39,187 nt of DNA, taken from a virus. The stretch is from the UHGV virus genome UHGV-0864147; one strand, 5' to 3'. Numbering within the stretch: the stretch's first letter is position 1; each line of letters opens with the position of its first letter. Shown one piece after another: positions 1,908-38,802 of the stretch. Made by a program: the position numbers and the translations under genes. The notes beneath the pieces were generated by a model. The model had not been told where the DNA came from. It saw only the letters and a program-made list of their open reading frames with translations, and did not search any database.

Positions 1908-2536
1908 TGATTACCATCCTGACGTTCTTTGAGTCGCTTCCTGGCTGCCGCTATGCGATCAGCAATTGTCACATTCACATTAACATCCAGGCGCTCTTTG
2001 AACGCGTTAACGTCGACGTGCTTACCGATGAGCTCGAGGTTTTTCACCTTGTCGGGCCATTTCACCTTCTTCAGGATATGCTCGACATCCTCAACAGAGA
2101 GATCCGCCTCGCCATTCTCTTTTTGCAGAGAAGCCTGGGTCGTCTTGATGGTAGCGATATCCATAGCACTGAGAGAGGTACGCCAGACCTTCGGCCATTC
2201 AGCGATCGGCTTCATCCCGCCGTCATCGTTCAGGATATCCAGCACGTCCATCTGGTCGATTTCCACCAGGCGCAGCAGGACATAATCAGCACTGACGCGC
2301 AGGCGCTTGTTGCGCTCCTCCATCAGCTCGGCAATCCGTTTTTGAATGCGTTCATCGCGCATCATGACACTGGCTTTAACTGCCGCTGTATTTGGAGAGA
2401 ATCCTGCGTTAATCGCTGCCTGAGTCTGGTTTTCAGGCGTTTTGATGTATGACTGGCAATAAGCCTCCTGCATTGCTGTTAGTGGCTTAAATTGCGTTGA
2501 TTTGCGTTTATAGGTTTTAGGTTCAGCAGGCATCAT
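1904..2536 (-). CDS. terS: terminase small subunit
   Basis: Translation contains AINAGFSPNTAAVKAS typical of small terminase DNA-binding domain; track ORF starts at TTG 2614, ATG at 2534-2536 preferred (GGTGG upstream). Confidence 0.65.
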   Translation of the reverse strand: MMPAEPKTYKRKSTQFKPLTAMQEAYCQSYIKTPENQTQAAINAGFSPNTAAVKASVMMRDERIQKRIAELMEERNKRLRVSADYVLLRLVEIDQMDVLDILNDDGGMKPIAEWPKVWRTSLSAMDIATIKTTQASLQKENGEADLSVEDVEHILKKVKWPDKVKNLELIGKHVDVNAFKERLDVNVNVTIADRIAAARKRLKERQDGNQ

Positions 2537-2568
2537 AACCACCGTGGTAATAGTTACCGTTGTGGTAA
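2536..2568. promoter_or_regulatory. tandem TTACC-N5-GGTAA-type sites in terS leader
   Basis: Sites 2536-2550 (TAACC/GGTAA) and 2554-2568 (perfect). Confidence 0.4.
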
Positions 2569-2578
2569 TAGTACCATG

Positions 2579-2605
2579 CAAAATAAAGCCGCCATAGTTG
2601 GCGGC
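2579..2605 (-). terminator. intrinsic terminator-like hairpin upstream of terS
   Basis: GCCGCC AACTAT GGCGGC followed by TTTATTTTG on minus strand. Confidence 0.5.
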
Positions 2606-2646
2606 AGTATTCAAAACCCATCAAATTCATCATGCATAATCTACTC

Positions 2647-2658
2647 GTGACATGTCAC
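2647..2658. repeat. 12-bp perfect palindrome GTGACATGTCAC (copy 1)
   Basis: Identical to copy at 21599-21610; overlaps a minus-strand stop codon. Confidence 0.6.
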
Positions 2659-3002
2659 ACTATTAATTTCGTTTCATGCCAGCCTTTAGTCACCCAGCAT
2701 TGCGAGTCACCATTACACGGGCATGAATTAACTGGAACTCTCTCGCCGCACTTACCGCAACGTTTTCTGCTGATCGATTTTATACGCCCGCGCACACGTG
2801 CATCATCCTGGCGGATCAGCAGCGCGATGTACTCGGCCATTTCATAGGGATCGCGACCAGGGCGCCGGGCGGCGCAGTTCCGCGCCAGCATTTCCTGCTC
2901 CTGCTTATCCAGCACCAGTTCAATTTTGCGCTCACCGGCGGCGGACTGCCGAGCGCGCTGCGCGGCTTTGCGTTCTGCGGGGGATTTAGCCACGAATCGC
3001 AC
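2655..3002 (-). CDS. hypothetical Cys-rich protein (CGKCG...CPCNG zinc-ribbon-like C-terminus), candidate late-gene regulator
   Basis: 115 aa ORF directly upstream of terminator plus terS; GTG start overlapping stop of upstream small ORF. Confidence 0.4.
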   Translation of the reverse strand: MRFVAKSPAERKAAQRARQSAAGERKIELVLDKQEQEMLARNCAARRPGRDPYEMAEYIALLIRQDDARVRGRIKSISRKRCGKCGERVPVNSCPCNGDSQCWVTKGWHETKLIV

Positions 3003-3108
3003 TCCACGCCAGATTGATTAATGACTCCCAGGTAATATAAACCCGGATACCAGCAGCCAGGCCGAAACCAATCACCATGGCATAAAGCAGAGCGTTGCAC
3101 TTGTTCAT
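2986..3108 (-). CDS. small hydrophobic peptide (40 aa)
   Basis: Not in ORF track; ATG at 3106-3108 preceded by GGAGGTGAAG; translation MNKCNALLYAMVIGFGLAAGIRVYITWESLINLAWSAIRG. Confidence 0.3.
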   Translation of the reverse strand: MNKCNALLYAMVIGFGLAAGIRVYITWESLINLAWSAIRG

Positions 3109-3947
3109 CACTTCACCTCCTGCGGCGGTTCTGGTAGCGGCATCCAGTGAGTTACGTCATCCAAGATATTTCCTGATAAATACGTGAAAGCTCTATATTT
3201 TTTGTAATCAATTGGATTTACAACCCAGTTCCAATATGCGGCCACGATTTCACCTTGACTAAATGCCAGTAACATTTTGGTGTCTTCCGGCATTCGCTCA
3301 CTACAGCTTATCCAACCATCCGGAGTTACCGGATAGTTGCCATTCACAAGGTCAGCTCGAACATATAGTGTGTCATCATGGTGCTGATTGTGGCTGCACC
3401 ACGTTAATTCGCTTAACTCGCCATCTTCTGGCCATACTCCAGCTGTTTGCAGCCAGATATGGGCTGGCGCATCTTGGCAAGGTGTATTAACTGGCAACTT
3501 GTAAGTTTGGCTTACAGGTTCAGCACCATGAAGCATGGCGTCGCTCCGCTCTATGCCATCCAGCGCGATTCGCAGTGCCTGAATTGTGGTAGAGCTATCG
3601 TTTGGGGCTATTCCATATCGCTCGAATACAGCTAAATGGTTGCGCATAATCTCAGGCGTAAGCTCTTTGTAAGCATAAGCAAGAGGCTCTGATGCATTAT
3701 CCGGCACAACCGACGCAGGCGCGGCAGCATAAACAGGAATAACGTCCGCTTGCTCTTTATTGCTTTCATCCGTTAAAGCCCAGAATAATTTCCCGGCCGG
3801 ATGTTTGAAAATATAAGCAACTGGTTCTGCTTCCAGCGATGCCAGTGCAATTTCATAAGCACGGCGCTCAATATTGTCTCGAACGTCCAAGCTGCCTATG
3901 CGCTCTTTGATTTCTTTAATCAGTTCTTTGTCGGTAAAAGTGGTCAT
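3108..3947 (-). CDS. hypothetical protein with DUF551-like C-terminus (WMPLPEPP)
   Basis: ATG at 3945-3947 preceded by AAGGAG; track gives longer 3108..3989 version. Confidence 0.5.
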   Translation of the reverse strand: MTTFTDKELIKEIKERIGSLDVRDNIERRAYEIALASLEAEPVAYIFKHPAGKLFWALTDESNKEQADVIPVYAAAPASVVPDNASEPLAYAYKELTPEIMRNHLAVFERYGIAPNDSSTTIQALRIALDGIERSDAMLHGAEPVSQTYKLPVNTPCQDAPAHIWLQTAGVWPEDGELSELTWCSHNQHHDDTLYVRADLVNGNYPVTPDGWISCSERMPEDTKMLLAFSQGEIVAAYWNWVVNPIDYKKYRAFTYLSGNILDDVTHWMPLPEPPQEVK

Positions 3948-3948
3948 C

Positions 3949-4506
3949 TCACTCTCCTTTGATGCGAATGCCAGCGGCGCGGGAATCATTCCATCGCTTT
4001 ACTTCTTCACGAATTACGTCAATGCATTCTTTCGAATCCATTAGGTAATCTTCATCAAAAAGACGTTCCTGTTCGTTTTCTATCGCAACAATGATTGCTT
4101 CAACTAATTTTTGTGCCTGAGAATCACTTTCTAACTCTGCTATGCGCTTACTCCCATCCGAGATAACACCTTCGTAATACTCACGCTGCTCGTTAAGTTT
4201 TGATTTTGTCTCCTCAAGCTCTACACGCAGCTTCCCTACCGTTAGCGCAATATCCTCGTTCTCCTGGTCGCGGCGTTTGATGTATTGCTGGTTCCTTTCC
4301 CGTTCATCCAGTAGTGCCAGCACGGTTTCTGGTCCGGCCAGAAATTTGAAGGCGTTGAGCGCATCAATATCCACACCGTAATCTTTAAGTTCTTGTTCAC
4401 TTAACAAATCATCATCAACTGGCAACATTAACAGGCGTTCCATTGCCGGAATTGCACGCTCTGCCGCCTCACGCAGTGCCTGATAGTCAATTGTCATTCT
4501 CGCCAT
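3949..4506 (-). CDS. Ead/Ea22-like coiled-coil protein
   Basis: 185 aa, acidic coiled-coil, N-terminus MARMTIDYQALREAAE resembles Ead/Ea22 family of lambdoid phages (recalled, unverified). Confidence 0.45.
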   Translation of the reverse strand: MARMTIDYQALREAAERAIPAMERLLMLPVDDDLLSEQELKDYGVDIDALNAFKFLAGPETVLALLDERERNQQYIKRRDQENEDIALTVGKLRVELEETKSKLNEQREYYEGVISDGSKRIAELESDSQAQKLVEAIIVAIENEQERLFDEDYLMDSKECIDVIREEVKRWNDSRAAGIRIKGE

Positions 4507-5138
4507 CCTTCACAGTTGTAATCACTACAGCCTTCAAAATCATATGGGCTGTACTGCCAGGTTATTTTTCCGCAATGCGGACAATTCCAACGCACCTTCC
4601 CGCTTCGCGACTTCTTTCTTCTGTTCTGCTCTTTCAACCAGTCAGGCATGACCAAACCTGCGCCCTGAACCATTGTTCTGCGGTTAAAGTTATTGATATT
4701 GAACGTCAGACGCTTGGCTGCATCAGCAATGGAAAATGGCAACCAAACTATTCCTGGTTCGTTTTTGTTGGCGACGCTAAAGATGGTCGCTTTACTGAAG
4801 TCATCTGTTGGCAATCCACCGTTTTGAAGCCAGTAAACATCGTTGCCGTTCCAGCTACCTTTTTTGTAGGCCACATACGCAGTGCAATCTGACTCAATCA
4901 GGCTTTCTGTAGGGATGTACTGGCAATCAACGTGCCACACTGCCATTGCATCCACGCTATCAGCGCAAACAGGCTGATCGATATCTCGCCCACAATTCCA
5001 GGCTTTTTGGGCTTCTTCCAGCGTGTAAACATGAGCGCGATCGATATCAGAACTGTAACCATTACCGTTATGGCAATGGAATGAAGCGTTATTGCCCACA
5101 GTTTCACGCGAGCACATCATGTAAAAACGGTTAGTCAC
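4494..5138 (-). CDS. hypothetical Cys-rich protein
   Basis: 214 aa ORF in operon context; multiple Cys/His clusters (CPHCG, CEGW). Confidence 0.45.
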   Translation of the reverse strand: MTNRFYMMCSRETVGNNASFHCHNGNGYSSDIDRAHVYTLEEAQKAWNCGRDIDQPVCADSVDAMAVWHVDCQYIPTESLIESDCTAYVAYKKGSWNGNDVYWLQNGGLPTDDFSKATIFSVANKNEPGIVWLPFSIADAAKRLTFNINNFNRRTMVQGAGLVMPDWLKEQNRRKKSRSGKVRWNCPHCGKITWQYSPYDFEGCSDYNCEGWRE

Positions 5139-5602
5139 TGGTTGCCTCCTTTACGAAGCTGGGCGACGAACTCGTTAAGTGATATGTAGCAATCTCCAAA
5201 TGTTAACGAACCGCTCGACCGCATATGCTCCATAGCCATATCCACGCCCTGCGCCCGTACTTCAGCCAGGAAAGCGTCGGTGGCTGGGGTGTCAACACGG
5301 ATGCTGTCGCGCAAGATGAAAAATGCATTGAGCATTCCAGTCTCTGGCACTTCATCCTGATGCTTCTCATACGCATCAAGAGCCTTCATCATCTCATGTC
5401 CGAATGGTTGAGGGTGCGCAGACTTCAGCCCCGCACTCTCCGCTGCCAGCGCATTAGCACGCACCAGTTGCACTTCCAGTTGCGTTGCCAAATCGCTGAG
5501 CAGCTTTGCCACACTACGCATATCAACGGCACCACATTCAGCTTTCAGTTCCGAAGCCATCTCATGCCCGGCGGAAACTAACCCTTTGATATTACTTTCC
5601 AT
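5135..5602 (-). CDS. hypothetical protein
   Basis: 155 aa ORF, 4-bp overlap with downstream gene. Confidence 0.45.
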   Translation of the reverse strand: MESNIKGLVSAGHEMASELKAECGAVDMRSVAKLLSDLATQLEVQLVRANALAAESAGLKSAHPQPFGHEMMKALDAYEKHQDEVPETGMLNAFFILRDSIRVDTPATDAFLAEVRAQGVDMAMEHMRSSGSLTFGDCYISLNEFVAQLRKGGNQ

Positions 5603-5663
5603 CTTTACCCTCGCTTATCCACATAACTTATTGATTACATTGATAACTAAAAAGATCGTCGAT

Positions 5664-6011
5664 TCAGAACTCTTCGATGTTCCAGCCGCCACCTGCTTTC
5701 TTTGGTTTAACCGTTACCCCGATGATTCGGAACGGATACTGATCTGCGGCTACTTTGGTTTTCACCCTGGCGTCGTCGGTCCAGAATCCCCCTTTCACTT
5801 CGTGCAGTTCCATCTCTCCGGTGGCGAGCATCACAGCGAAATCGGGCGTATAGAACGTGTTGTCAGCTAACCGCAGCTTAATACCCTCGAATCGATACCA
5901 GGCGATTTCCCCTGCACGTTTACGCTGCTCAAGGTGCTGGCAATACGCAGATTCTGTTTTGTTCATCTGGCCTGTTTTGAGTCGACCAAGAGCCTGTATC
6001 TGTTTTCTCAT
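5664..6011 (-). CDS. hypothetical protein (DUF1064-like, recalled)
   Basis: 115 aa; start codon 4 bp from TTACC-N5-GGTAA site whose half-site supplies the SD. Confidence 0.45.
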   Translation of the reverse strand: MRKQIQALGRLKTGQMNKTESAYCQHLEQRKRAGEIAWYRFEGIKLRLADNTFYTPDFAVMLATGEMELHEVKGGFWTDDARVKTKVAADQYPFRIIGVTVKPKKAGGGWNIEEF

Positions 6012-6014
6012 GAT

Positions 6015-6091
6015 TTACCTCTAAGGTAATTAAAAACCACATAAGACACGAAATCAATAGATTTTAGAATATTTTATTACCCAACAGGTAA
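6015..6091. promoter_or_regulatory. two TTACC-N5-GGTAA sites (6015-6029, 6077-6091)
   Basis: Perfect inverted repeats in intergenic gap inside replication operon. Confidence 0.45.
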
Positions 6092-6128
6092 TTATCAAGA
6101 CGTAAAAAAATGCGCTATCGCGCTGGTA

Positions 6129-6929: not shown

Positions 6930-7726
6930 GCTTCAGGGCTGTTCCAGTGCGGAACGTTGTTATCAGGTAATGTTGATTGCTTCTGTCTGCTAATCTGCAG
7001 CCGCCTTGCCAGCTTCTGCTCCCACTGTGCCTGATGGTATGCCTTACCCTCAGCCATCCAGTAAATTCTGAACTCTGCAAGTTCCTGTGCCGTTGGCAGA
7101 CTGTCCAGGTAGATCCCCTGCAATGAGCTTTTCCGAAGAAAGTCATCTGATGGCTGCCATTGTTCATGCATGACAAATTTGCCTAATTGCCCTGGCCCAC
7201 CAGGAGGAACAAAGTTATTCATCACGGCGTTGTTTGCGCCGGGGTCATGATGCACAGAATCCCCGTTTTTTGTCCTGCTCTCCCTCTCTTGGTTAAATGA
7301 CTGGTTATATGACTGGTTCTGGATCCCGTTTTTGGGATCATTCAACATCCCGTTTTTGGGATCATTCAACATCCCGTTTTTGGGTATATTCCCGTTTTCG
7401 GTAACATTACCGTTTTCGGGTTCATTGCCCCCCTCTCGGTTGCCTTTAATGTTCCCGTTTTTGGTTATATTAAGAGAGAAAACCCGCACTCTTTTTGTCG
7501 CTCCCTTTCTCTCTCCGGTATCTGAAATAAGCCCCATTTTCATGAGCGATATAAGCCCGGCCTGCACGGTTTTTTTATTCAGGCAAGTGTCTTTAACGAG
7601 GCGTTCTATGCTGGGGTAGCAGAGGTTATATTCATCGGCTCTGTCAGCCATCGAGAGCAGTATGAGCTTTAATGATGAGCTACCTGGATCTGTCTCCCAG
7701 GCCCAATCTGTTGCATGTCTGCTCAT
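6911..7726 (-). CDS. replication initiator (O-like, N-terminal winged HTH) with internal Asn/Gly-rich repeat
   Basis: N-terminal HTH-like region, repeated NGN/KNGMLNDP peptide encoded by tandem DNA repeats, gene overlaps P-like gene. Confidence 0.65.
   Translation of the reverse strand: MSRHATDWAWETDPGSSSLKLILLSMADRADEYNLCYPSIERLVKDTCLNKKTVQAGLISLMKMGLISDTGERKGATKRVRVFSLNITKNGNIKGNREGGNEPENGNVTENGNIPKNGMLNDPKNGMLNDPKNGIQNQSYNQSFNQERESRTKNGDSVHHDPGANNAVMNNFVPPGGPGQLGKFVMHEQWQPSDDFLRKSSLQGIYLDSLPTAQELAEFRIYWMAEGKAYHQAQWEQKLARRLQISRQKQSTLPDNNVPHWNSPEAWEDFL
7325..7474. repeat. iteron-like tandem repeats (putative ori) inside O-like gene
   Basis: Exact 24-bp tandem duplication at 7325-7348 and 7349-7372 plus four further CCCGTTTTYGG copies. 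Confidence 0.5.
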
Positions 7727-8005: not shown

Positions 8006-8022
8006 CCAGATTTGGTTTTTTA

Positions 8023-8037
8023 TTACCTTTGAGGTGC
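8023..8037. promoter_or_regulatory. degenerate TTACC-N5-GGTGC site
   Basis: Between terminator and cII-position gene. Confidence 0.3.
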
Positions 8038-8092: not shown

Positions 8093-8323
8093 TCATGAGT
8101 AGAAGAAGTATGCCAGTTCTGCTTTTGAGCGCAGCCATTGTCTTGTTTTACAGGCTTTAAAAAGCCCATTCATCAATACTTTACCTGGCATTTTGCGCTT
8201 ACCTGTTAAGTGAGTCTGGATATAGTGACTCGTCGTTCCGGCTTCCTGTGCGAAGGCTTCACGCTCATCCGGAGTAAGTGCAAGCCAGTGCTTTTTGAAA
8301 TCGAAATGTCCGTTATCGCTCAT
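8093..8323 (-). CDS. Cro-like HTH regulator
   Basis: 76 aa, divergent from repressor gene across operator cluster, followed by terminator. Confidence 0.5.
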   Translation of the reverse strand: MSDNGHFDFKKHWLALTPDEREAFAQEAGTTSHYIQTHLTGKRKMPGKVLMNGLFKACKTRQWLRSKAELAYFFYS

Positions 8324-8348: not shown

Positions 8349-8377
8349 ATAATAAATATTCACCCATAAGGTAACAA
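8349..8377 (-). promoter_or_regulatory. PR-like promoter for Cro-like gene
   Basis: Minus-strand -35 TTGTTA and -10 TATTAT with 17-bp spacer, overlapped by operator site. Confidence 0.4.
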
Positions 8378-8422
8378 AAATCAAGGATAGTTACCTATGG
8401 GGTGCATTTACCTGTTGGGTAA
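8360..8422. promoter_or_regulatory. OR-like operator cluster (three TTACC-N5-GGTAA-type sites at 8360-8374, 8391-8405, 8408-8422)
   Basis: Between divergent repressor and Cro-like genes; one perfect and two degenerate inverted repeats. Confidence 0.55.
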
Positions 8423-8477: not shown

Positions 8478-9062
8478 ATGAAAAGTATCCAGGACGTCCG
8501 CAGGCAAAATCTCAACGACTTGATCGACCGTGAATTCAATGGTGTTCAGACGCGGATGGCAGAAAAACTTGGAACTCAGGCAAATCTGGTAAACCGCTGG
8601 GCTCTTGGCAAGAAGGTTATCGGCGACCAGGTTGCGCGAAAAATTGAAGCTGCCGCCAATAAACCCCGTAACTGGCTTGATATCGATCGCTCGCTTTCTC
8701 AGGAAGGTTTTCAGCCTGTCGGCCCAAGCGACATTGGTCAGCTGGCGGCTCACAACCTGGAACGCTGGATGAGCGAAAGCCGCGACCTTTCAACACAGGG
8801 AAAACTTCACCGCGCATCCGGCGTCGCCCAGGTGACAATCAGCCGCCTGTTAAACAATGAGGTCAGCGTTTCCATTTCCACCCTGGAGAATGTTGCATCC
8901 GCATTCGGGCGTCACGGCTATGAATTACTGATTCACCCGCACGACCCTGCGACCATCAACTATGACCGCTCGCGCTACGCATTGTTACCCGAAACCGAGA
9001 AAGCAAAGATCGAAAGTTACATTGAATTTGTCATCAACCAGAACGAAAAAAACAAACAATAA
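8478..9062 (+). CDS. prophage repressor, two HTH domains, no S24 peptidase domain
   Basis: 194 aa; two XRE-like HTH segments; located at cI position; followed by strong terminator. Confidence 0.55.
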   Translation: MKSIQDVRRQNLNDLIDREFNGVQTRMAEKLGTQANLVNRWALGKKVIGDQVARKIEAAANKPRNWLDIDRSLSQEGFQPVGPSDIGQLAAHNLERWMSESRDLSTQGKLHRASGVAQVTISRLLNNEVSVSISTLENVASAFGRHGYELLIHPHDPATINYDRSRYALLPETEKAKIESYIEFVINQNEKNKQ

Positions 9063-9119: not shown

Positions 9120-9196
9120 TTACCTTAAGGGTAATTTTTTTAACTCATATCTATTGACACCAAACCAAATACGCATAATCATTACCTCAACGGTAA
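9120..9196. promoter_or_regulatory. OL-like operator pair (9120-9134 and 9182-9196) flanking a TTGACA -35 element (9154-9159)
   Basis: Two perfect TTACC-N5-GGTAA sites; -35 consensus hexamer; -10 assignment uncertain. Confidence 0.5.
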
Positions 9197-9370: not shown

Positions 9371-9670
9371 ATGAACGTTAATCAGCAGAAAAATCTTCAA
9401 AAAATCATGCTGGCATTCGACAAGGACTACCGCCTGTCAGAACAGCTATATGACCGACAAGTCGAACTGATTGAGAGTATCCGGCTTCATCAACTGGCCT
9501 CAACTTTTGACGTTGTAACAGGCAAAGGCGTTCGTCAGGAAGTGCTGGAGGCCGCTAAAGACAGCCCTGAGTTCGAAGAACTAATGGATGCCTACCGGCG
9601 AGAGGCAATGGCAATTATCGCCCGCTGGGATCTGGCGGATCAGCTTGATGGACAGAAGGACGCGGCATGA
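9371..9670 (+). CDS. hypothetical protein
   Basis: ATG at 9371 (MNVNQQ...); ATGA overlap with exonuclease start. Confidence 0.45.
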   Translation: MNVNQQKNLQKIMLAFDKDYRLSEQLYDRQVELIESIRLHQLASTFDVVTGKGVRQEVLEAAKDSPEFEELMDAYRREAMAIIARWDLADQLDGQKDAA

Positions 9671-10488
9671 AACCGGGAATTTATTTCGGCATCAGCAACG
9701 AAGACTACCACGCCGGTGACGGCGTGAGTAAGTCGCAACTTGACATGGTTGCCAAGAATCCGGCGCTTCTTAAATGGGTTCAGGCAGCACCAGAAGACGA
9801 AGAGAAAAAGTCTGAACTGGATATGGGAACCGCATTGCACTGTCTGCTTCTGGAACCTGGAGAATTCGACAAACGCTTCATCGTTTCACCGAAATTCGAT
9901 CGTCGGACAAAACAAGGTAAAGCTGACGAAGAAGCATTTCTTCGTGATGTGGCGGATATGGGTATTACGGTACTTGATGTCGAGCAGTGGCGAAAACTGG
10001 AGCTGATGCGTGATAGCACAATGGCTCACCCGGCTGCACGCTGGATGTTGGAAGCACCTGGTTACTGCGAAGCGTCAATGTACTGGAACGATGAAGAGAC
10101 GGGTGAGTTGTGCCGAATTCGTCCAGACAAATGGCTGAACGAGCACAACGTGATCGTCGACGTGAAAAAGGTTGCAGATATGGACCGTTTTGCACGCCAC
10201 ATCGAGGAATTCCGCTACCACGTGCAGGACGCAATGTACCGCGAAGGCGCAATGAGGGTTACTGGTCAGCCGCATGGTTTTTTCTTTCTTGCCGTGAGCG
10301 AAAGCATTGATTGTGGTCGGTATCCGGTACGCGTGTTCGAGCTGGATGCGCAGGATGTCGATGCCGGGCACGCTCTGTTCCGCCGGGATCTGAATACCTA
10401 TCACGAATGCCGCATCAATGATGAATGGGGCGGTGTGGAAATCATTAAACGCCCTGAGTGGGCACGCAAACAGGATATGTACATATGA
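9667..10488 (+). CDS. exonuclease (PD-(D/E)XK family, RecE/YqaJ-like)
   Basis: 273 aa with acidic/lysine catalytic-like motifs (DVKK), translationally coupled to RecT. Confidence 0.7.
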   Translation: MKPGIYFGISNEDYHAGDGVSKSQLDMVAKNPALLKWVQAAPEDEEKKSELDMGTALHCLLLEPGEFDKRFIVSPKFDRRTKQGKADEEAFLRDVADMGITVLDVEQWRKLELMRDSTMAHPAARWMLEAPGYCEASMYWNDEETGELCRIRPDKWLNEHNVIVDVKKVADMDRFARHIEEFRYHVQDAMYREGAMRVTGQPHGFFFLAVSESIDCGRYPVRVFELDAQDVDAGHALFRRDLNTYHECRINDEWGGVEIIKRPEWARKQDMYI

Positions 10489-11426
10489 GCAACGACATCG
10501 CAAACATCAACGCACCAGTAGACACAGCAATCGCTGGAACTGCTGCAACTATTTTCAGCCCAGACGGCTTGAACCAACTGATGAAATTCGCCGAGGTAAT
10601 GGCGCAAAGCCGCGTAACGGTACCGGCGCACCTCGCCGGGAAACCAGCTGATTGCATGGCCGTGGCAATGCAGGCTGCGCAGTGGGGAATGAACCCGTTT
10701 GCCGTGGCTCAGAAAACCCATGTTGTGAACGGCACGCTAGGTTATGAAGCCCAATTAGTAAACGCAGTTATCTCAACGATGTCGCCAACAAAAGATCGCA
10801 TCAACTACGAGTGGTTCGGGCCGTGGGAACGCGTGATCGGTAAGTTTGTTGAGAAAACATCCAAAAACGGCAATCCATATATTGCACCAGGCTGGACTCT
10901 AAAAGACGAAGAAGGCTGCGGTGTTCGCGTATGGGCAACCATGAAGGGCGAGGATCAACCTCGAGTGCTTGAGTTAATGCTATCTCAAGCACAGGTAAGA
11001 AACTCCACACTTTGGGCCAGTGATCCGAAACAACAACTCGCATACCTTGCGACAAAACGCTGGTCTCGCTTGCACTGTCCTGACGTAATCATGGGCGTCT
11101 ACACACCAGACGAATTACAGGAAACGGCACCGCGCGTTGAGCGAGACATTACTCCGCAAACGACCACTGCTGCGGGAATGAACAGTCTGATCAACGCTAA
11201 ACAAGTGAAAAAGCCTGATGAGCAAACGCGTAAAGCGGATAGCCGTGATCCAGAAGAAATGCTGATGGCCTTTACCAGCGCAGCGATGAATTACAGCACT
11301 GTCTCCGAACTGGATAAAGCTTACAAATACATTGCACAAAAACTTTCAGATGATGACGAACTGCTGGCAAAAGCCACCGACGTTTACAGCGTTCGTCGGG
11401 AAGAATTAAACGAAACATCTATGTAA
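10485..11426 (+). CDS. recT: RecT-family single-strand annealing protein
   Basis: Start at ATG overlapping exonuclease stop; sequence resembles RecT family. Confidence 0.8.
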   Translation: MSNDIANINAPVDTAIAGTAATIFSPDGLNQLMKFAEVMAQSRVTVPAHLAGKPADCMAVAMQAAQWGMNPFAVAQKTHVVNGTLGYEAQLVNAVISTMSPTKDRINYEWFGPWERVIGKFVEKTSKNGNPYIAPGWTLKDEEGCGVRVWATMKGEDQPRVLELMLSQAQVRNSTLWASDPKQQLAYLATKRWSRLHCPDVIMGVYTPDELQETAPRVERDITPQTTTAAGMNSLINAKQVKKPDEQTRKADSRDPEEMLMAFTSAAMNYSTVSELDKAYKYIAQKLSDDDELLAKATDVYSVRREELNETSM

Positions 11427-14263: not shown

Positions 14264-14278
14264 ATACCTTTAAGGTAA
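14264..14278. promoter_or_regulatory. ATACC-N5-GGTAA site upstream of integrase
   Basis: Near-perfect copy about 45 bp upstream of int start. Confidence 0.4.
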
Positions 14279-15937: not shown

Positions 15938-16328
15938 CGTCTTTTCTCCCCGGAATTAACTCGCGTGGATTATCGGAACGGTGATAGAGCCAGATACCAA
16001 TTCGCACTGCGACAATTGCTGATACGAATGCGCCAGCAGAGAAAACAATCCCTTTCTCGAACGAGTCCTGCGTGATGGTAGGGATCAGGCTGGCTATGCC
16101 GATAAGAATTGATGCTGCTGGTTTGTAAAAAAGAAGGCCGCAGAGAAAGCTGAGCATCGACAAGAATACGCGACGACGAATTGGATACTCTACCGCAGAG
16201 GTAACAAAAATTACCGCACCAGCAAGAGCACCGAGCGCCACCTCTGGCGGAACACCTACGATAACCGCAGCAAGAGAGCTCACACTAAGCCATTGATTTA
16301 AAGACTCAGTTGTTATGTTAACCGACAT
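15924..16328 (-). CDS. holin-like membrane protein
   Basis: About 134 aa, multiple TM segments; overlaps downstream membrane protein gene. Confidence 0.45.
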   Translation of the reverse strand: MSVNITTESLNQWLSVSSLAAVIVGVPPEVALGALAGAVIFVTSAVEYPIRRRVFLSMLSFLCGLLFYKPAASILIGIASLIPTITQDSFEKGIVFSAGAFVSAIVAVRIGIWLYHRSDNPRELIPGRKDDGNA

Positions 16329-16503
16329 AGCACACACCATTTTTTTTGTACATATCGAACCTCTTCACTTACAGGTCACCAAACACAATAAACCATATAT
16401 GTTTAACCATCAGATATTCTGAAATAACTATCAATTCATTGGTTTTTGATGACAATATTCATAAACAACCATAAATGTAAGGATGTTTATTAGTTGCCAA
16501 AAT

Positions 16504-19110: not shown

Positions 19111-19214
19111 GTTAAATCTCCAGATAGTCGCAGCACCCGTTGCGCCGCATATCTGGTTATTCTATTACCTGAAAAACCATATATGTATAGAAAGACTATA
19201 AATACCAATAGATA

Positions 19215-19229
19215 TTACCTTTATGGTAA
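19215..19229. promoter_or_regulatory. TTACC-N5-GGTAA site upstream of LexA box
   Basis: Perfect arms; 38 bp upstream of LexA box. Confidence 0.45.
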
Positions 19230-19266: not shown

Positions 19267-19286
19267 TACTGTATAAATATACAGTT
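19267..19286 (+). promoter_or_regulatory. LexA (SOS) box
   Basis: TACTGTATAAATATACAGTT, i.e. CTGT-N8-ACAG with AT-rich spacer, 2 mismatches to the 20-mer consensus; 20 bp upstream of ATG 19306. Confidence 0.7.
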
Positions 19287-19305: not shown

Positions 19306-19563
19306 ATGCAGCGGTATCACTATCCACTGGAAGACGGATTTACCGAAAGGATTCACACGCCGGGAGGCGTCAGGTCACTGGTGGAGGGATCGCACTTGAT
19401 GAAATTACTCCGGGATCTCGATAAGGATGGATTTAATGTCGATGGCCCACTTGCCGAACTGACTGCACTGATTAACTACGTCACCAGCTCACAGATGTCT
19501 ATGCGGGATCTGCAAACACATCTCGACTATTGTGCCGAACAATTACGAAAACAAACCAGATAA
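19306..19563 (+). CDS. small protein paralogous to antirepressor C-terminal domain; LexA-regulated
   Basis: ATG 19306 with GGAG upstream; about 45 percent identity to Ant C-terminus by eye; LexA box upstream. Confidence 0.5.
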   Translation: MQRYHYPLEDGFTERIHTPGGVRSLVEGSHLMKLLRDLDKDGFNVDGPLAELTALINYVTSSQMSMRDLQTHLDYCAEQLRKQTR

Positions 19564-19566: not shown

Positions 19567-19609
19567 TTGCAATTACCAAGTGGAGTGCTTATATTTACCT
19601 TTGAGGTAA
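19567..19609 (+). promoter_or_regulatory. promoter-like element (-35 TTGCAA, -10 TATATT) with TTACC-N5-GGTAA site 19595-19609
   Basis: 17-bp spacer; perfect operator-like repeat overlapping -10/+1. Confidence 0.4.
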
Positions 19610-19877
19610 ATTTACATCGCACTCCTCTTGTGCCATAGTAATCGGGCACTGGCAAAATCCAGTGCCGGGATTGGTCTCCCGGATTACTACAGAGGCACAT
19701 ATGCCGCATAAGCGGTTTTTTTTATGTGTAAAGCGCACCTATTCTATGGTGGGCTGTGTGGGGGCACCGAAAGGTGCGCCGGGTTCCTTTGTAGCCGGTA
19801 AGACCAACTCTGCACAGTTCACCACCATCTGATTGGTCTCAGCGGTGGTGATTAACCTAACTACAAAGGTGATCGCC
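19610..19877 (+). ncRNA. structured leader / candidate regulatory RNA upstream of ant
   Basis: Hairpins at 19646-19665, 19665-19682, 19704-19715 plus U8, 19764-19777 (GAAA loop), 19819-19851; CCTTTGTAG (19786-19794) complementary to ant SD region (19861-19869). Confidence 0.3.
19704..19723 (+). terminator. weak terminator/attenuator in ant leader
   Basis: CCGC ATAA GCGG followed by eight T. Confidence 0.35.
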
Positions 19878-20570
19878 ATGAATACCAAACCTTCCATCTT
19901 TTCCTTTGAGTCATCCTGCCAGATCCGTATGTTCATGATTGACGGAGAACCTTGGTTTGTCACCAAAGATGTGTGCAATGCTTTGAATATTGATGTTACA
20001 CAAGCGAGAAAACTTGATAAAAAAGGCTGGAACAAAAAGGGGCTGTATTCAATACAGACCCCTGGTGGAATACAAGAACTATCCATCGTTTCAGAATCAG
20101 GTCTCTACATCCTTATTCTGCGTTGCAAAGAGGCAATGACTGAGGGAACGAGAGCATTCAGATTTCTTGAATGGGTTACAGGCGAGGTTCTTCCTCAGAT
20201 CCGCCGCACCGGAAGTTACATTAAAAACTCGCTACCGCAGGAAGAACGCATAAAGATGGTTGCCGACCAGGTAGCCAACGCCACGGCGTCAGCAGTAATG
20301 CAGGCGATGAAGATAGAGAACAAAACCTACAACGCCCCGCTGAAGCCCGGCTACCGCAGCCTGATTCATTCCCCGTCTGGTGTTCTCGGCCTGACGGAGA
20401 ACTCACTGCTGATGAATCTGCTGAACCAGTTACAGGAAGACGGGCACGACGTATCGGGCGCGGCGGCGGAGCTGACCACCATGTTCTGCTACATCGTCGG
20501 TGTGAGCAAATGCCTGCGTGATATCCAGACGCACGCGGAGTACATCAACGACAAGGCTGGGTTCTTCTGA
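19878..20570 (+). CDS. ant: antirepressor (Bro-N N-terminal domain)
   Basis: FSFESSCQIRMFMIDGEPWFVTKDVCNALNI and GLYILILRC / VLPQIRRTGSY Bro-N signatures. Confidence 0.8.
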   Translation: MNTKPSIFSFESSCQIRMFMIDGEPWFVTKDVCNALNIDVTQARKLDKKGWNKKGLYSIQTPGGIQELSIVSESGLYILILRCKEAMTEGTRAFRFLEWVTGEVLPQIRRTGSYIKNSLPQEERIKMVADQVANATASAVMQAMKIENKTYNAPLKPGYRSLIHSPSGVLGLTENSLLMNLLNQLQEDGHDVSGAAAELTTMFCYIVGVSKCLRDIQTHAEYINDKAGFF

Positions 20571-20635: not shown

Positions 20636-20650
20636 TTACCTCACGGGTGA
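20636..20650. promoter_or_regulatory. TTACC-N5-GGTGA site upstream of moron
   Basis: 9/10 arm match. Confidence 0.35.
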
Positions 20651-20779: not shown

Positions 20780-21319
20780 GTGTTAAGTGAAGAAATGCAA
20801 TTTGCCATGGCTGTGGCTCAAATCGTAAGTGCAGTCGCGGTTTCGCTTGGCTTGTTCATAGCTATCGCTACTATTATTTATAATGTAAATACAGCGAGAA
20901 AAGTACACACTTCAGTATTCCTTGGTGAAAGCAGGTTTGATGTAGATTATAAGAAAGGCCTATCTACTATGCGCCGCATTCACGAATCGAACAAATCATT
21001 CCGCTCTTATATGTATCCAAGCAATGGGCAGGCTGATCTTACGGATGAAGAAAAGACAGAGAAGAGAGAAATAATTTACTGTCTAGGTTTCTACGAACGC
21101 ATGGCTGTGAGCGTGAAGCGGAAAACTTATGATGAGACCATGATTAAGGAAGTATTTTACAGCTCCGTTGTAAATAACTATCAGATTGCGCTACCTCTTA
21201 TACAAGCCATTAGAGAAAAAGAAAACATAAACACATATTTTAAAGAATATGAATGGTTGGCCACACGATGGAAGGATTGCCCATTGAAGGATAAATCCCC
21301 GTGGTACAAGTTTTGGTAA
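20780..21319 (+). CDS. AT-rich moron: single-pass membrane protein of unknown function
   Basis: 179 aa; N-terminal TM helix; own promoter-like region and terminators on both sides. Confidence 0.5.
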   Translation: MLSEEMQFAMAVAQIVSAVAVSLGLFIAIATIIYNVNTARKVHTSVFLGESRFDVDYKKGLSTMRRIHESNKSFRSYMYPSNGQADLTDEEKTEKREIIYCLGFYERMAVSVKRKTYDETMIKEVFYSSVVNNYQIALPLIQAIREKENINTYFKEYEWLATRWKDCPLKDKSPWYKFW

Positions 21320-33349: not shown

Positions 33350-33694
33350 TTACACGCCCAGTTCTTTACGCTTATCTGCGATCTTCTCGCGGAGCGTTTC
33401 TGCTTTGGCGTTATGGTGTGGCTTCTCGTTAAAGAGCAATTCGTACTCTTCACGGAGCTTATCCAGTTCACCATCATCTGACACATCGTTGATGATTTTG
33501 GTGCTGGTTGCTGCCATAGACACCTTTCCTGCTACCTTTGCTTTTGCCTGTCTGGCTGCATCGTTAACAGGTTCCAGTGCGCTACCAGGCTCACCTTCGT
33601 ATTCGATTTCTGCCCCCTCCTGCCACAGTGTGTTATGGATATGAGAGAGGCGCAGAACGCGGTATCTTGGTTTCTCACCTGACATCGATATCAC
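33350..33694 (-). CDS. structural-module protein
   Basis: 114 aa. Confidence 0.4.
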   Translation of the reverse strand: MISMSGEKPRYRVLRLSHIHNTLWQEGAEIEYEGEPGSALEPVNDAARQAKAKVAGKVSMAATSTKIINDVSDDGELDKLREEYELLFNEKPHHNAKAETLREKIADKRKELGV

Positions 33695-33695
33695 C

Positions 33696-34133: not shown

Positions 34134-34184
34134 CTTCTTTCTCCATTAGTGGGTCTGTTACGACCAACAGGTTAATAACAGGCG

Positions 34185-35177: not shown

Positions 35178-35185
35178 TTCCTCTC

Positions 35186-35887
35186 TTATTTGCCATAGAG
35201 CACTTCGGCCGCACTACGCTGGCCTTCATTACCACCGGTGACCATGCCATCTTCAGACATCGCCTTTCCGATTTTCACGAACGTTTTGACCAGATCAGGG
35301 TGATTACCCAGCCCGGTGGTGTTCAGATATTCTTTGAGCTCAGGTGTCCCGAACTGGTCAAGCGCACGCTGTGCGGCGCTAAGGTTAGAAATCAACTTGT
35401 CGCCACCGATTTCTTTGTCAGCTTTTACATCCGCAGCCCACTGCTCGGTTGTTTTCTGCCAGGCTTCTGCCTGGCGCTGCTGAACACCTGCCAGAATCTT
35501 CGGATAAGCATCAACCAGCTTTTGCGCTTGCTCGTTGGTCAGGTTAAGTTCTCGCGCCACAGGCTCGAATTCCTTCAACGCTTCTGTATCCAGCTCTACG
35601 CCTTCGGCAGCCTGAAACTCGTACTTCTCAGGCGCACCCTCTGGTTTATTACCGTCCTTTTTTTCATCCTGCTTATCGTTTTCAGGCTTTTTGTCATCAG
35701 CAGGTTTATCGCCATCAGCAACAGGTTGTGGCTTATCACCTTCCTGTTGTGATGGATCACCAACTGGAGCAGGGTTATCACCTGCAGGCGCTGACGGTTC
35801 TGACGCAGCCGGAGCTGCTCCACCATCGACTGGTTGCTCATTGCAAAGACGGCGATACAGCAAACGCTCAAATAAATTCATGATCAC
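35186..35887 (-). CDS. scaffolding protein
   Basis: 233 aa, highly acidic Pro/Asp/Lys-rich low-complexity N-half with helical C-half, between portal and capsid. Confidence 0.6.
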   Translation of the reverse strand: MIMNLFERLLYRRLCNEQPVDGGAAPAASEPSAPAGDNPAPVGDPSQQEGDKPQPVADGDKPADDKKPENDKQDEKKDGNKPEGAPEKYEFQAAEGVELDTEALKEFEPVARELNLTNEQAQKLVDAYPKILAGVQQRQAEAWQKTTEQWAADVKADKEIGGDKLISNLSAAQRALDQFGTPELKEYLNTTGLGNHPDLVKTFVKIGKAMSEDGMVTGGNEGQRSAAEVLYGK

Positions 35888-36180
35888 TCCTGTTCACTGG
35901 CCTCTTTGGCCATCTTCAAATACTGTTCAGGGCAATGCGCCATAACGCGCTGAAACAGTTCCAGCGCCAGATTGCGTTGCCCCTCATTAAACGCCATTGC
36001 CATAGCGTCCATCGGTGAGATAGCGGAAAACACACGGCCTTTCTCCAGCACCGACCAGACAACGCGACGCCCCTGTTCACTGCTCATGACAAAGCGAATG
36101 TCATCAATTTCACGCTGCGCCATGTCACGTTGCTTACGGGCGTTTTCTTCTTTCAGTTGATCGTCTTCGTAATCTGTCAT
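35884..36180 (-). CDS. hypothetical protein
   Basis: 98 aa, coupled to portal and scaffold genes. Confidence 0.4.
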   Translation of the reverse strand: MTDYEDDQLKEENARKQRDMAQREIDDIRFVMSSEQGRRVVWSVLEKGRVFSAISPMDAMAMAFNEGQRNLALELFQRVMAHCPEQYLKMAKEASEQE

Positions 36181-37856
36181 TGTGATTGCCCACCCTGACC
36201 ACTAACTGCATTCGCCATAGCTGACAACACACTCGGATCCGAAGTTTTAGCTTCGCTTAGCGTCTTGGCACCCTGTGCCGCAGCCATCCCCATCGCCATC
36301 ATTTGTTGCTGCTGTTGCTGCTGTGCCCGTTGCTGGCGAGCCTGCTCAACCTGTTCCTGCGGAACAATGACGGTTGGAGACACTCCAGACATATCAGCGA
36401 ATGCATCGATTGCCTGATCAACGTTGAGTTTGTCGAGAGCTTCTGGTTTCGCTTGCGCAAGTTGACCAATGAAGTTGACCGTAGACGCCAGACTGGACAG
36501 GCCGATAGACTTCTGCGCCTGAGCCATGACGGAAATGTATTCGACCTTCAGGGGCATACCTTCCATCGCGTCAGGCGGGGGCGGCAGCATGTTTTTACGC
36601 ACCATCATCGAGAAAGAGCGGTCAATGAGAGGATTAAGACATTCGTCGTTCAGACGCTCCAGAACCGGCCCCAACATCAGAAGTTTTTCTTCTTTCATTT
36701 CGATCACCGCTTCAACAGGCATCGAGCGGGTATTGATGTTCTGCAACATCATGAACAGATCGACAAAGTAGGCGCTGTTAATGATTTGACGAGTGTCCTG
36801 AATGTCTGCCACCAAATCTGCTGTACTGGGGTTAACCAGATAAGCAGGCCTGAAGCCATCCTGACCAGTAATCTGATCGATATACGTGATGTCGCCAGGA
36901 AGAAGGGAGGCGCGCTGATTCTTGAGGGAAATCGGAGCAACCATCGGCGGATTGGTGGCTTTATCAATCAACTGCGACTTGCGCTTCTGGAGAAGCTGCA
37001 ATGCCTTAACAGGTCCAAGCGCCAGCATACCCGGGCATGATGATCCATAAACATCTTCGCCGTTAACTTCCCAGCGCGGAGCCATAATTGGAAACTCATC
37101 GAATCCGGACTCACGCAACAACCTGTCGTTATCGCCACCAACCTCGTAATAAACCGATTTGAATGGCTTGTTCTTGCTATCCAGCTTCGATGTATCGCGG
37201 TCAATGTTCGGGTAAACCGAATGCATCACTTCAATCCGCTTCTCGTAGGTGCCGCTTTCCCACATGCTTTTTACGGATTCGCTGACGTTATTTAGTCCGA
37301 ACTCCTGAACAAGCTGACGAACAGTCATAGAGAACTTGCGAAAACAGGTGTCCACACTGCCACGAGGTGAGTTAGCCAGGTAGTAACTTCCTATCGGGAA
37401 TGGCATTGTACGAATGATGTCCTCGTCATCCTCCAGCACCGCCATTGCGCCAGTGCTGTATGTGCCGAGGCTTCCGTATAACTGCGGCAGCGACTGATAG
37501 AGATTCGACTTATTGAACATATCGTTCATGCGGTTCTGCACCGCCTCAAGCCACAACTTAACAGGGCCATAATCCATCATTTCAGGATCTGGCGTAGCCA
37601 GGCGAAACCACGGACGCGCGGGGCTTGTGATGCCTGACATCATGCCGCTGGCGAGAGTGCGCGCCGCCATAGTCCCGGTCGAATCAATAATGCGTGTATT
37701 GCGTCGATCGTTACGGTTGACCTCAGAAGTCAGAAAGCGGGAACCACGCGGGTTGATGTAATCACTCAACTCGCGCCAGTGCGGCTCGAACGACTGACGC
37801 TCGCTTTCAAGTTGTGCGAACTGTTTGTTCAATCGCTCTTTAGTTGTTTCCGCCAT
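36177..37856 (-). CDS. portal (head-to-tail connector) protein
   Basis: 559 aa, first large gene of structural operon, Gln-rich C-terminal tail. Confidence 0.75.
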   Translation of the reverse strand: MAETTKERLNKQFAQLESERQSFEPHWRELSDYINPRGSRFLTSEVNRNDRRNTRIIDSTGTMAARTLASGMMSGITSPARPWFRLATPDPEMMDYGPVKLWLEAVQNRMNDMFNKSNLYQSLPQLYGSLGTYSTGAMAVLEDDEDIIRTMPFPIGSYYLANSPRGSVDTCFRKFSMTVRQLVQEFGLNNVSESVKSMWESGTYEKRIEVMHSVYPNIDRDTSKLDSKNKPFKSVYYEVGGDNDRLLRESGFDEFPIMAPRWEVNGEDVYGSSCPGMLALGPVKALQLLQKRKSQLIDKATNPPMVAPISLKNQRASLLPGDITYIDQITGQDGFRPAYLVNPSTADLVADIQDTRQIINSAYFVDLFMMLQNINTRSMPVEAVIEMKEEKLLMLGPVLERLNDECLNPLIDRSFSMMVRKNMLPPPPDAMEGMPLKVEYISVMAQAQKSIGLSSLASTVNFIGQLAQAKPEALDKLNVDQAIDAFADMSGVSPTVIVPQEQVEQARQQRAQQQQQQQMMAMGMAAAQGAKTLSEAKTSDPSVLSAMANAVSGQGGQSQ

Positions 37857-37870
37857 TTCAATGACTCCGG

Positions 37871-38077
37871 TTACTGACCAAGCAGCGTTTTACCGCTGGT
37901 ATTAGCGGTTGATGTGTCGCCCTGAGAACCGGTAAGCAGCGTAGAACTACGACCAGCAGCAGCGCGACGGCGACGTGTTTCTTCGTCGCGGGCATCAACA
38001 ACGGCGGCATCCTGCTCCTGTGGTGCTGCCTGAACTTCTGGTGTTGCAGGCACTGATGGTGAGCTACCCATGCACAT
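37871..38077 (-). CDS. hypothetical small protein
   Basis: 68 aa, GGAG 10 nt upstream of ATG; alternative overlapping frame 37858..38097 less likely. Confidence 0.3.
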   Translation of the reverse strand: MCMGSSPSVPATPEVQAAPQEQDAAVVDARDEETRRRRAAAGRSSTLLTGSQGDTSTANTSGKTLLGQ

Positions 38078-38145
38078 ATCAATGACTCCGTACGCAATTA
38101 AATTATTACCAATTTAACCACATATGATTTATTTATCGTAGAAGG

Positions 38146-38182
38146 TTGACATTTAACGCGTGAATTATTACCTTTCAGGTAA
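38146..38182 (+). promoter_or_regulatory. TTGACA -35-like hexamer with TTACC-N5-GGTAA site 38168-38182
   Basis: Perfect operator-like repeat 17 bp downstream of consensus -35 hexamer; on same strand as tRNA. Confidence 0.4.
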
Positions 38183-38504
38183 CCAAAGAGCTCATTCTGG
38201 TTACTAACCTGACTGGCTTGTCGTTAAATTAAACAGGTGGAGTGAGCTTTTATTTTGAGCAGTACGGCGTATGGCACATGCGCCGATAGCGGTCTGGATA
38301 CGTTTAAGGGGCACCCTCCCTTGCTCGGGCAAACGAACCAGGTAGCCGGAATGTGCAAGTCGAGCGGTTTTATTCCGCGCACGGGGATTCACCATCCCGG
38401 CGATTCGGTGTGACGCCTCGGAAGAGACGAGGGTACAACGATGAGAGCATTTATGGAGCCGCGACAAAGTGTGGCGCCTTAACAGGCTAAGTGCTCTCAG
38501 CGTT

Positions 38505-38581
38505 GTGGCATTAGCTCAGTTGGACAGAGCAACCGCCTTCTAAGCGGTTGGTCGCAGGTTCGAATCCTGCATGCCACGCCA
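38505..38581 (+). tRNA. tRNA-Arg (anticodon UCU)
   Basis: 77 nt cloverleaf: acceptor GTGGCAT/ATGCCAC, D-arm GCTC..GAGC, anticodon stem ACCGC/GCGGT with loop CTTCTAA, T-arm GCAGG TTCGAAT CCTGC, encoded CCA. Confidence 0.85.
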
Positions 38582-38623
38582 GAATCACGCCTAAGGACCG
38601 TGATGCCAGAAGTTCCAGGTGCT

Positions 38624-38665
38624 TGGCGGTGATGGTTTCCCTTGAAGGACTATCACCGCCCTTTT
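38624..38665 (+). terminator. terminator downstream of tRNA
   Basis: GGCGGTGAT 18-nt loop ATCACCGCC followed by CTTTTT. Confidence 0.55.
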
Positions 38666-38744
38666 TACAGCAGGACGCCATTGCGATGACTTCATGCTGT
38701 AAACCCGTACAGCCACGGAAGGCATAACTCATTGCTTCCAGTTC

Positions 38745-38768
38745 GCCCGGTTCGCCGGGCATTTTTTT
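38745..38768 (+). terminator. intrinsic terminator
   Basis: GCCCGG TTCG CCGGGC followed by ATTTTTTT. Confidence 0.7.
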
Positions 38769-38784
38769 GCTTGATGACCGCAAA

Positions 38785-38802
38785 TTACCTTAAAGGTATA
38801 AT
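38785..38802. promoter_or_regulatory. TTACC-N5-GGTAT site overlapping TATAAT hexamer and SD of moron ORF
   Basis: 9/10 arm match; AAGGT within site sits 6 nt before ATG 38804. Confidence 0.4.

Follow-up and report, generated by a model that had tools for sequence, protein, structure and literature searches.

The closest described relative of the regulatory system treated here is the Rep-Ant system of the Uetakevirus phages epsilon15 and SPC32H. Rep, the prophage repressor, is reportedly tetrameric, with DNA-binding dimers that sit on palindromic sites, and in studies of SPC32H it is said to be removed by an antirepressor and not cleaved. The antirepressor, Ant, is under the control of LexA and inactivates Rep (summarised in PMC9638917). 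In the RefSeq record of epsilon15 (NC_004775.2), seven features are annotated as 'protein_bind, bound moiety repressor', and all seven are copies of the 15-bp palindrome TTACC-N5-GGTAA. Here we describe the same palindrome in the virus genome UHGV-0864147, the whole 39,187-bp stretch of which is referred to as the window. This genome is complete and circularly permuted and belongs to a phiV10-like Uetakevirus, that is, to an epsilon15-like temperate podovirus. A comparison of its sites and genes with those of its relatives indicates that the copies are very probably operators of its Rep protein (encoded at 8478-9062), through which this one repressor would gate almost every transcription unit directly.

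As judged from sequence, the window system is a member of the SPC32H/epsilon15 Rep system, with every testable defining feature of that system found. The two share the Uetakevirus genus, the repressor family (PDB 5D50, 5D4Z), the palindrome and a small LexA-controlled Ant. Residues 1-190 of the window Rep align with SPC32H Rep (PDB 5D50 chain A, E=4e-42), making it a full-length homologue. It matches the Pfam family HTH_3 and, weakly, a YdaS-like helix-turn-helix (HTH), and is 100% identical to phiV10 p40; its overall identity to the Rep proteins of epsilon15 and SPC32H is about 42%, higher in the N-terminal domain (54%) than in the C-terminal domain (40%). A perfect LexA box, CTGTATAAATATACAG, lies at 19269-19284, 22 bp upstream of the small ant gene, as described for SPC32H, and by analogy Ant is presumed to be the inducer that takes Rep off its sites. 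Two more matches to CTGT-N8-ACAG are present in the window, at 34155 and 38697.

The distribution of the sites is likewise shared with epsilon15. Both phages carry copies in the terS leader, the gp3 leader, the ant/tail-fibre region, the left operator region (OL) and the nin region, and copies in the window occupy slots orthologous to the annotated repressor sites of epsilon15. Differences concern the number of copies with at most one mismatch (about 15 in epsilon15 and 16 in the window) and their occurrence at individual loci, the window having extra sites at an isrK/C4/Bro module and at two accessory genes and lacking a site in the lysis-cassette slot. The epsilon15 record marks its seven sites only and leaves the three copies in its right operator region (OR) unmarked. 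Since this record already assigns dispersed copies of the motif to the repressor, the finding is already known in kind.

Three more distant systems bear comparison. The region around rep resembles that of lambda in that rep and cro are divergent, three operators lie between them and an OL set is located on the far side of the repressor gene. In lambda, CI acts at OR and OL only, the late genes are left to Q antitermination, and CI is cleaved with RecA. The window differs from lambda in that its operators reach late, integration and accessory units and in that a Rep-type repressor loses its activity to an antirepressor, as described for SPC32H (PMC9638917). Dispersed operators are known from phage P1, in which C1 has 22 of them, asymmetric 17-mers of the type ATTGCTCTAATAAATTT that include one for the immI c4-icd-ant operon (PMC8546580), and from mycobacteriophage L5 and its cluster A relatives, the short intergenic spaces of which hold >20 repressor sites (PMC9283540). 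The sites of L5 are asymmetric and orientation dependent (PMC9283540); they are 13-mers that are bound by a monomer and block elongation. The window would share with P1 a single immunity repressor that gates many units, among them an operon in which a C4 antisense RNA comes ahead of an antirepressor gene, and, more loosely, with L5 the many repressor sites dispersed over intergenic spaces. However, its sites are symmetric 15-mers, unlike those of P1, and palindromic and mostly promoter overlapping, unlike those of L5; the window repressor, moreover, matches HTH_3 and 5D50, and the likeness to P1 C1 is functional only. Because site symmetry and sequence both differ, the window system belongs to neither the P1 C1 nor the L5 stoperator family. 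P1 C1 is not known to be related to Rep.

Copies of the palindrome in the window and in its relatives

Nine perfect copies of TTACC-N5-GGTAA are present in the window, against 0.03 expected from dinucleotide shuffles, and 16 copies with at most one mismatch, against 0.85 expected. An unbiased count of 5-Nk-5 palindromes (k = 0-8) ranked this palindrome as the commonest of the window, the runner-up reaching five copies, and it was also the top palindrome in each of the other genomes scanned (phiV10, epsilon15, SPN1S and the Klebsiella phage), that is, in five of five. Copies with a 4-nt spacer (TTACC-N4) were at background level in the window, with one one-mismatch copy against 0.58 expected, and in the comparison loci a 6-nt spacer gave no perfect copy.

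The window is oriented as the reverse complement of the phiV10 record and is 98% identical to phiV10 over the structural and early regions. A plus-strand open reading frame (ORF) of 272 amino acids (aa), with a membrane N terminus and a coiled coil, runs from 38804 to 39187 and continues at 1-435, from which it follows that the window is a whole circularly permuted genome. The gene map combined the ORF list with colinearity to phiV10. By this map none of the nine perfect copies falls within a gene, with about 92% of the genome coding and about 8% non-coding (binomial P = 1.7e-10), and five of the seven one-mismatch copies are likewise intergenic; the other two, at 5062 and 16190, lie within genes. 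The original prediction had reported nine perfect and seven near-perfect copies, all of them in intergenic or leader positions. Its counts and coordinates were reproduced exactly and the enrichment was borne out, and its placement applies to 14 of the copies and fails for the two intragenic ones. Since chance alone would supply about one copy with a single mismatch, copies 5062 and 16190 are best taken as noise; both are probably chance matches, the former outside the system. Two degenerate intergenic copies with two mismatches (8391-8405 and 8023-8037), absent from the first list, were added, and with these changes the likely functional set again comprises 16 sites (Table 1). The motif is not as frequent in host DNA: a small control sample of 100 kb of the E. 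coli K-12 chromosome contained one perfect copy, in the coding sequence of yacL, and four copies with at most one mismatch, a low density which, for a sample of this size, argues that the motif is no host-wide feature.

Table 1. Copies of TTACC-N5-GGTAA in the window and the regulator genes to which they relate
Feature	Coordinates	Strand	Match to motif or product	Context
OR site nearest cro	8360..8374		TCACCCATAAGGTAA	Over -35 and spacer of predicted cro promoter TTGTTA-17-TATTAT
OR middle site	8391..8405		TTACCTATGGGGTGC, 2 mismatches	17 bp to next site; perfect in epsilon15, SPN1S and Klebsiella phage
OR site nearest rep	8408..8422		Perfect	55 bp 5' of rep start codon
OL upstream site	9120..9134		Perfect	62 bp from partner; at about -69 to -55 of leftward early promoter
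OL downstream site	9182..9196		Perfect	Adjoins -10 of TTGACA-17-AATCAT (9154-9182); covers predicted start of recombination operon
nin-pair upstream site	6077..6091			62-bp pair between replication gene P and DUF1064 (nin-like) genes
nin-pair downstream site	6015..6029			Adjoins conserved -10 TTTAAT; minus-strand GAGGTAA is ribosome-binding site 3 nt before DUF1064 ATG
Weak site past cro terminator	8023..8037		TTACCTTTGAGGTGC, 2 mismatches	Between terminator and following gene; 1 mismatch in phiV10 and Tyrion
terS-leader site 1	2554..2568		Perfect	Between early-right operon terminator and terS
terS-leader site 2	2536..2550			18 bp from first terS-leader site; ends 2 nt before terS ATG
int site	14264..14278		GGTAT variant	42 bp upstream of int; variant and flanks same in 5/5 compared genomes
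Tail-fibre/ant site	19215..19229		Perfect	Divergent region between tail-fibre gene and small LexA-controlled antirepressor gene
isrK/C4/Bro module site	19595..19609		Perfect	Adjoins -10 of predicted promoter TTGCAA-17-TATATT (19567-19595)
DUF4760 site	20636..20650		One mismatch	Upstream of accessory DUF4760 gene, at phiV10 homology breakpoint
Head/tRNA site	38168..38182		Perfect	Divergent region: head-gene operon (p06/portal, minus) and promoter toward tRNA-Arg (plus)
Wrapped-ORF site	38785..38799		One mismatch	Directly before 272-aa accessory ORF
Intragenic copy	5062..5076		One mismatch	About 20 codons into 214-aa ORF matching phrog_2457 end to end
Intragenic copy	16190..16204		One mismatch	Inside holin-like p27 gene; without counterpart in phiV10
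rep	8478..9062	+	Prophage repressor, 194 aa	N-terminal HTH domain; C-terminal tetramerisation/antirepressor-binding domain
cro-like gene	8093..8323	-	76 aa; phrog_35 'transcriptional repressor', E=5.6e-13	Divergent from rep; synteny with phiV10 p41
ant	19306..19563	+	Small antirepressor Ant, 85 aa; phrog_450; weak match to anti-repressor family phrog_1760	Homologue of epsilon15 gp19/phiV10 p24

The same enrichment is seen across the genus. At no more than one mismatch, phiV10 has 14 copies (0.65 expected), epsilon15 has 15 (0.68 expected), SPN1S has 18 (0.54 expected) and Tyrion has 15 (0.53 expected); the Klebsiella Uetakevirus BUCT711 has 13, nine of which are perfect (expectation not computed). 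These copies recur in syntenic slots. Single sites are found in the gp3/head leader, in the ant/tail-fibre region, after the cro terminator and upstream of int, where the site always has the GGTAT variant, which at 14264 forms the -10-like hexamer TATACT. Multiple sites are found as a terS-leader pair (18 bp), an OL pair (62 bp), an OR triplet (17/30-31 bp) and a replication/nin pair (62 bp). The 62-bp pair spacing is present in all six complete phage genomes, with one pair of the Klebsiella phage at 63 bp.

The palindrome also accompanies the N-terminal domain of Rep outside these phages. A collection scan with this domain, using a profile built from four sequences, gave prophage loci from six enterobacteria: Superficieibacter, Erwinia, Klebsiella, two Citrobacter species and Scandinavium. 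Within stretches of 5-6.2 kb, every locus holds 4-7 perfect copies, which lie at OR and OL; the nin pair occurs in all but the Scandinavium locus, and most of the paired sites are 62 bp apart. The strongest case is the Pseudomonas phage PseuP_224, an unrelated lambdoid siphovirus, the repressor of which shares only the N-terminal domain with Rep (40% identity) and has a different C-terminal domain. This phage carries four copies of TTACC-N4-GGTAA against 0.27 expected, two just 5' and two just 3' of cI and none elsewhere.

Rep as the probable binding protein and alternative readings

Comparison of the footprints at 12 slots in four or five genomes revealed a sharp division within the sites. 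Eight of 120 half-site columns were variable (7%), compared with 39 of 60 spacer columns (65%) and 160 of 288 flank columns (56%), and deviations within the half-sites (e.g., TCACC, GGTAT, GGTTA and GCACC) were never compensated on the opposite arm. The half-sites are under strong purifying selection, with spacers and flanks left to drift, and this combination of invariant half-sites, drifting surroundings and absent compensation points to a protein recognition site and not to an RNA stem. A putative recognition-helix motif, NLVNRW, is unchanged in all five Uetakevirus Rep proteins compared. In addition, the sites flank rep on both sides, with those at 8360, 8391 and 8408 upstream, in the rep/cro divergent region, and those at 9120 and 9182 downstream. 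The original prediction of a single DNA-binding protein, probably the repressor, in control of many promoters is thus supported by the sites on either side of rep, by the epsilon15 annotation, by the conservation of the half-sites and by the motif travelling with the N-terminal domain of Rep.

The position of the sites relative to promoters is consistent with this. Three of the five best sigma-70-like matches in the genome (10/12 matches) adjoin or contain an operator, and about half of the sites overlap the -35 element, spacer, -10 element or start point of a sigma-70-like promoter. The OL promoter ends on the first base of operator 9182, so that this operator covers the start point, and the partner site at 9120 lies about six turns upstream. 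The nin promoter has the geometry of OL base for base, with hexamers between two operators that read TTGATT and TTTAAT in the window and phiV10 and TTGAAA and TTAAAT in epsilon15 and SPN1S. A conserved plus-strand promoter toward tRNA-Arg, TTGACA-17-TACCTT, has its -10 element within operator 38168, and downstream of the promoter at site 19595 come an isrK-like RNA and a C4 antisense RNA, and then a Bro-N antirepressor gene. No promoter was assigned precisely to rep, terS, DUF4760 or int, where the hexamers matched too weakly.

Some observations weigh against Rep as the direct reader of all these sites. The comparative data do not separate Rep from Cro as the binder. The terS pair sits between a terminator and a start codon and is without a convincing sigma-70 promoter, and in the divergent intergenic regions of the head and tail-fibre genes the distance from the site is 32-44 bp to a separate conserved element downstream, ATRTGGTT, and about 65-80 bp to the late-type promoter elements, which likewise lie downstream. 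Distant homologues of the Rep N-terminal domain (35-41% identity; from Paraburkholderia, Hydrogenovibrio, Thiomicrospira and Moraxella) showed no clear matching palindrome, a result which we rate as uninformative. It is conceivable that the head and tail-fibre sites act on the opposite-strand promoter or serve as anchors, and the terS pair may act as a roadblock.

In light of the last point, the sites might be regarded in general as stoperator-like roadblocks that halt elongating RNA polymerase and not as promoter operators. The terS pair and the site at 8023, which lie within operons just past terminators and have no clear promoter, would fit such a role, but stoperators are asymmetric and orientation dependent (PMC9283540) whereas these sites are perfect palindromes, which can have no orientation, and most of them coincide with promoter-like hexamers. 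We therefore consider roadblocks improbable as an account of the set. Slightly more improbable is a division of labour in which the dispersed copies are read mainly by the Cro-like protein or by a conserved gp55-like regulator and Rep is confined to OR and OL. The Cro-like protein is weakly similar to the N-terminal HTH region of Rep (pairwise E=0.004) and would be expected to share its operators. Late or accessory units follow several of the dispersed sites, and the gp55-like regulator (phrog_536) is conserved just upstream of terS. However, the dispersed copies are indistinguishable in sequence from those at OR and OL, so that a protein binding one set should bind the other; the half-sites of PseuP_224 flank cI only, and the annotators of epsilon15 gave the dispersed copies to the repressor.

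A role at the RNA level, in which a 5-bp stem with a 5-nt loop would mask the Shine-Dalgarno sequence or mark a processing site in transcripts, is very unlikely. It had been raised because the GGTAA half doubles as a Shine-Dalgarno sequence in several copies. That part holds for three sites (2536, 6015 and 38785), where GGTAA is located within the ribosome-binding site, 2-3 nt before the start codon, and where compact packing of signals is the simplest account; the isolated 15-mers also fold somewhat better than shuffles. The RNA-level role itself did not stand up. The hairpins are marginal (-2.6 to -3.7 kcal/mol), the half-site bases are invariant instead of covarying, and most sites are not beside a start codon. 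Transcripts from the OL, nin and isrK/C4 promoters would be without the 5' arm, since their predicted start points lie inside the motif. The motif is, furthermore, strictly palindromic on DNA and is found in divergent regions that have no single transcript orientation, and a search of Rfam for structured RNA elements gave no match at the sites themselves. Hairpin formation and Shine-Dalgarno masking were hence rejected on folding energy, lack of covariation and start-point geometry. Finally, a compositional or chance artefact or a host transcription factor site has next to no probability, for although two one-mismatch copies are probably due to chance, the excess of perfect copies over the shuffle expectation, the palindrome ranking, the E. 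coli K-12 control with its roughly one perfect copy per 100 kb, in coding sequence, and the conservation of syntenic slots across phages of four host genera led us to reject it, and we know of no E. coli regulator with a TTACC-N5-GGTAA consensus.

Proposed mode of repression and induction

With Rep as the operator-binding repressor, the following scheme can be proposed. In a lysogen, Rep would occupy about 16 sites and keep nearly all transcription units silent. The gated units would be cro and the replication genes (through OR), the recombination operon (through the OL pair), the nin-like operon (through its pair), int, the C4/isrK/Bro module, the tRNA/accessory unit, two accessory genes and the leaders of the terS, head and tail-fibre genes. 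The half-site centres are one helical turn apart, a distance that would suit two N-terminal HTH domains bound in neighbouring major grooves. Because the operators overlap recognisable promoters, promoter occlusion would be the simplest mode of repression. At OL and nin, two operators bracket a promoter at 62 bp, which is about six turns and would place them on the same face of the DNA, and the near-invariance of this spacing suggests that a single Rep tetramer bridges and holds both sites. Induction would follow the scheme of SPC32H: upon DNA damage, LexA would leave the box before ant, Ant would break the Rep tetramer, and all sites would be freed at once. In lytic growth, the Cro-like protein is probably a second binder of these sites.

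A more speculative extension, which we offer tentatively and rate somewhat below even chances, has two parts: that each 62-bp pair is held by one tetramer, consisting of two trans-formed DNA-binding dimers, which closes a six-turn micro-loop round the promoter, and that immunity specificity is set by the antirepressor interface and not by co-evolution of operator and repressor. Among phages of Salmonella, Escherichia, Enterobacter and Klebsiella the operator and the recognition helix do not change, and the Ant-binding C-terminal domain diverges; it is on these grounds that the antirepressor interface might be what sets immunity specificity.

Elements near the sites and what the probable operator set implies

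A second motif, ATRTGGTTWWW, is present in four perfect copies in the window against 0.33 expected (6032-6042, 16388-16398, 19172-19182 and 38113-38123, all on the minus strand). All four lie between genes, each on the sense strand of an operon (nin-like, lysis, tail-fibre and head, respectively), and a weaker plus-strand copy is located at 8010-8020. phiV10 has the motif in all four slots, epsilon15 and SPN1S have it in the head and lysis slots, and the Klebsiella phage has it in the head slot. In three of the slots (head, tail-fibre and lysis), a -10-like hexamer is located about 15 nt downstream of the motif start, with no conserved -35 element. From its sequence and position, the motif looks like an activator-dependent middle/late promoter element, for which gp55-like, PerC-like and AlpA-like regulators would be candidate binders. 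The weaker copy is part of an arrangement at 8010-8037 (plus strand), beyond the cro terminator and pointing back to rep, in which ATTTGGTTTTT is followed, after two bases, by the weak operator TTACCTTTGAGGTGC. This geometry is that of the nin promoter and is also present in epsilon15 and SPN1S, and the arrangement may represent an establishment (P_RE-like) promoter that reads antisense through cro.

Between the Rep-site promoter at 19595 and a Bro-N antirepressor-like gene at 19833-20570, Rfam identified two plus-strand RNAs in tandem, the isrK Hfq-binding RNA at 19646-19722 (74.7 bits) and a C4 antisense RNA at 19742-19829 (78.6 bits). By analogy with immI of P1, isrK, C4 and the Bro gene are interpreted as a second antirepressor module beside the LexA-controlled Ant. 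In the lysis region (16341-16503), the window has neither the operator that precedes the lysis cassette in phiV10, epsilon15, SPN1S and Tyrion nor the divergent O-antigen modification gene (oac). Its lysis genes come immediately after the tail-fibre gene, and the lysis promoter has a decayed -10 element, TTTGGT. The joint absence of operator and oac suggests that an operator in this slot serves the divergent conversion-gene promoter.

Two accessory genes have an operator in front. The wrapped 272-aa ORF, preceded by the operator at 38785, takes the place of phiV10 p03, and PADLOC and Pfam searches with it gave coiled-coil noise only and no family assignment; the DUF4760 gene (20780-21319) is located at a phiV10 homology breakpoint. 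On the strand opposite the late genes, a tRNA-Arg(TCT) is encoded at 38505-38581 (plus strand), downstream of the conserved promoter with a perfect -35 element, and this tRNA is unannotated in phiV10. It is followed by a hairpin with a 14-bp stem at 38625-38660, in a region whose epsilon15 orthologue is annotated as an RNase III site. The DnaT-like replication-initiator gene contains, at positions 7290-7426, tandem arrays with periods of 24 bp (2.6 copies, 100% identity), 18 bp (3.1 copies) and 12 bp (2.4 copies), which are built on the small palindrome ATCCCG-TTTT-CGGGAT and are probably a replication origin with iterons. At 9667-11426 (plus strand), recE-like and recT-like genes form two overlapping ORFs (273 and 322 aa), and the phiV10 annotation has one fused RecE-RecT protein.

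Full-text literature searches for the motif or for Uetakevirus operators returned nothing relevant, and the paper on ZX5 discusses a repressor and an antirepressor and maps no operator. What is added to the epsilon15 annotation is a refinement and not a discovery: a full site list for a phiV10-type phage, with two false sites removed and two weak ones included, the rule of 62-bp pairs, an operator that is invariant across the genus and the link to the isrK/C4/Bro module, some of which may already have been published. The list provides a ready operator map for phiV10-type phages, which are in use as reporter and typing phages, and the 62-bp operator pairs offer a testable geometry for a tetrameric repressor of known structure. 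In summary, operators of Rep at almost every transcription unit would account for the silencing of a whole genome by a single protein in serotype-converting prophages, such as the O157:H7 phage phiV10, Salmonella epsilon15 and SPC32H, and would also account for the ability of one antirepressor to switch everything on at once.

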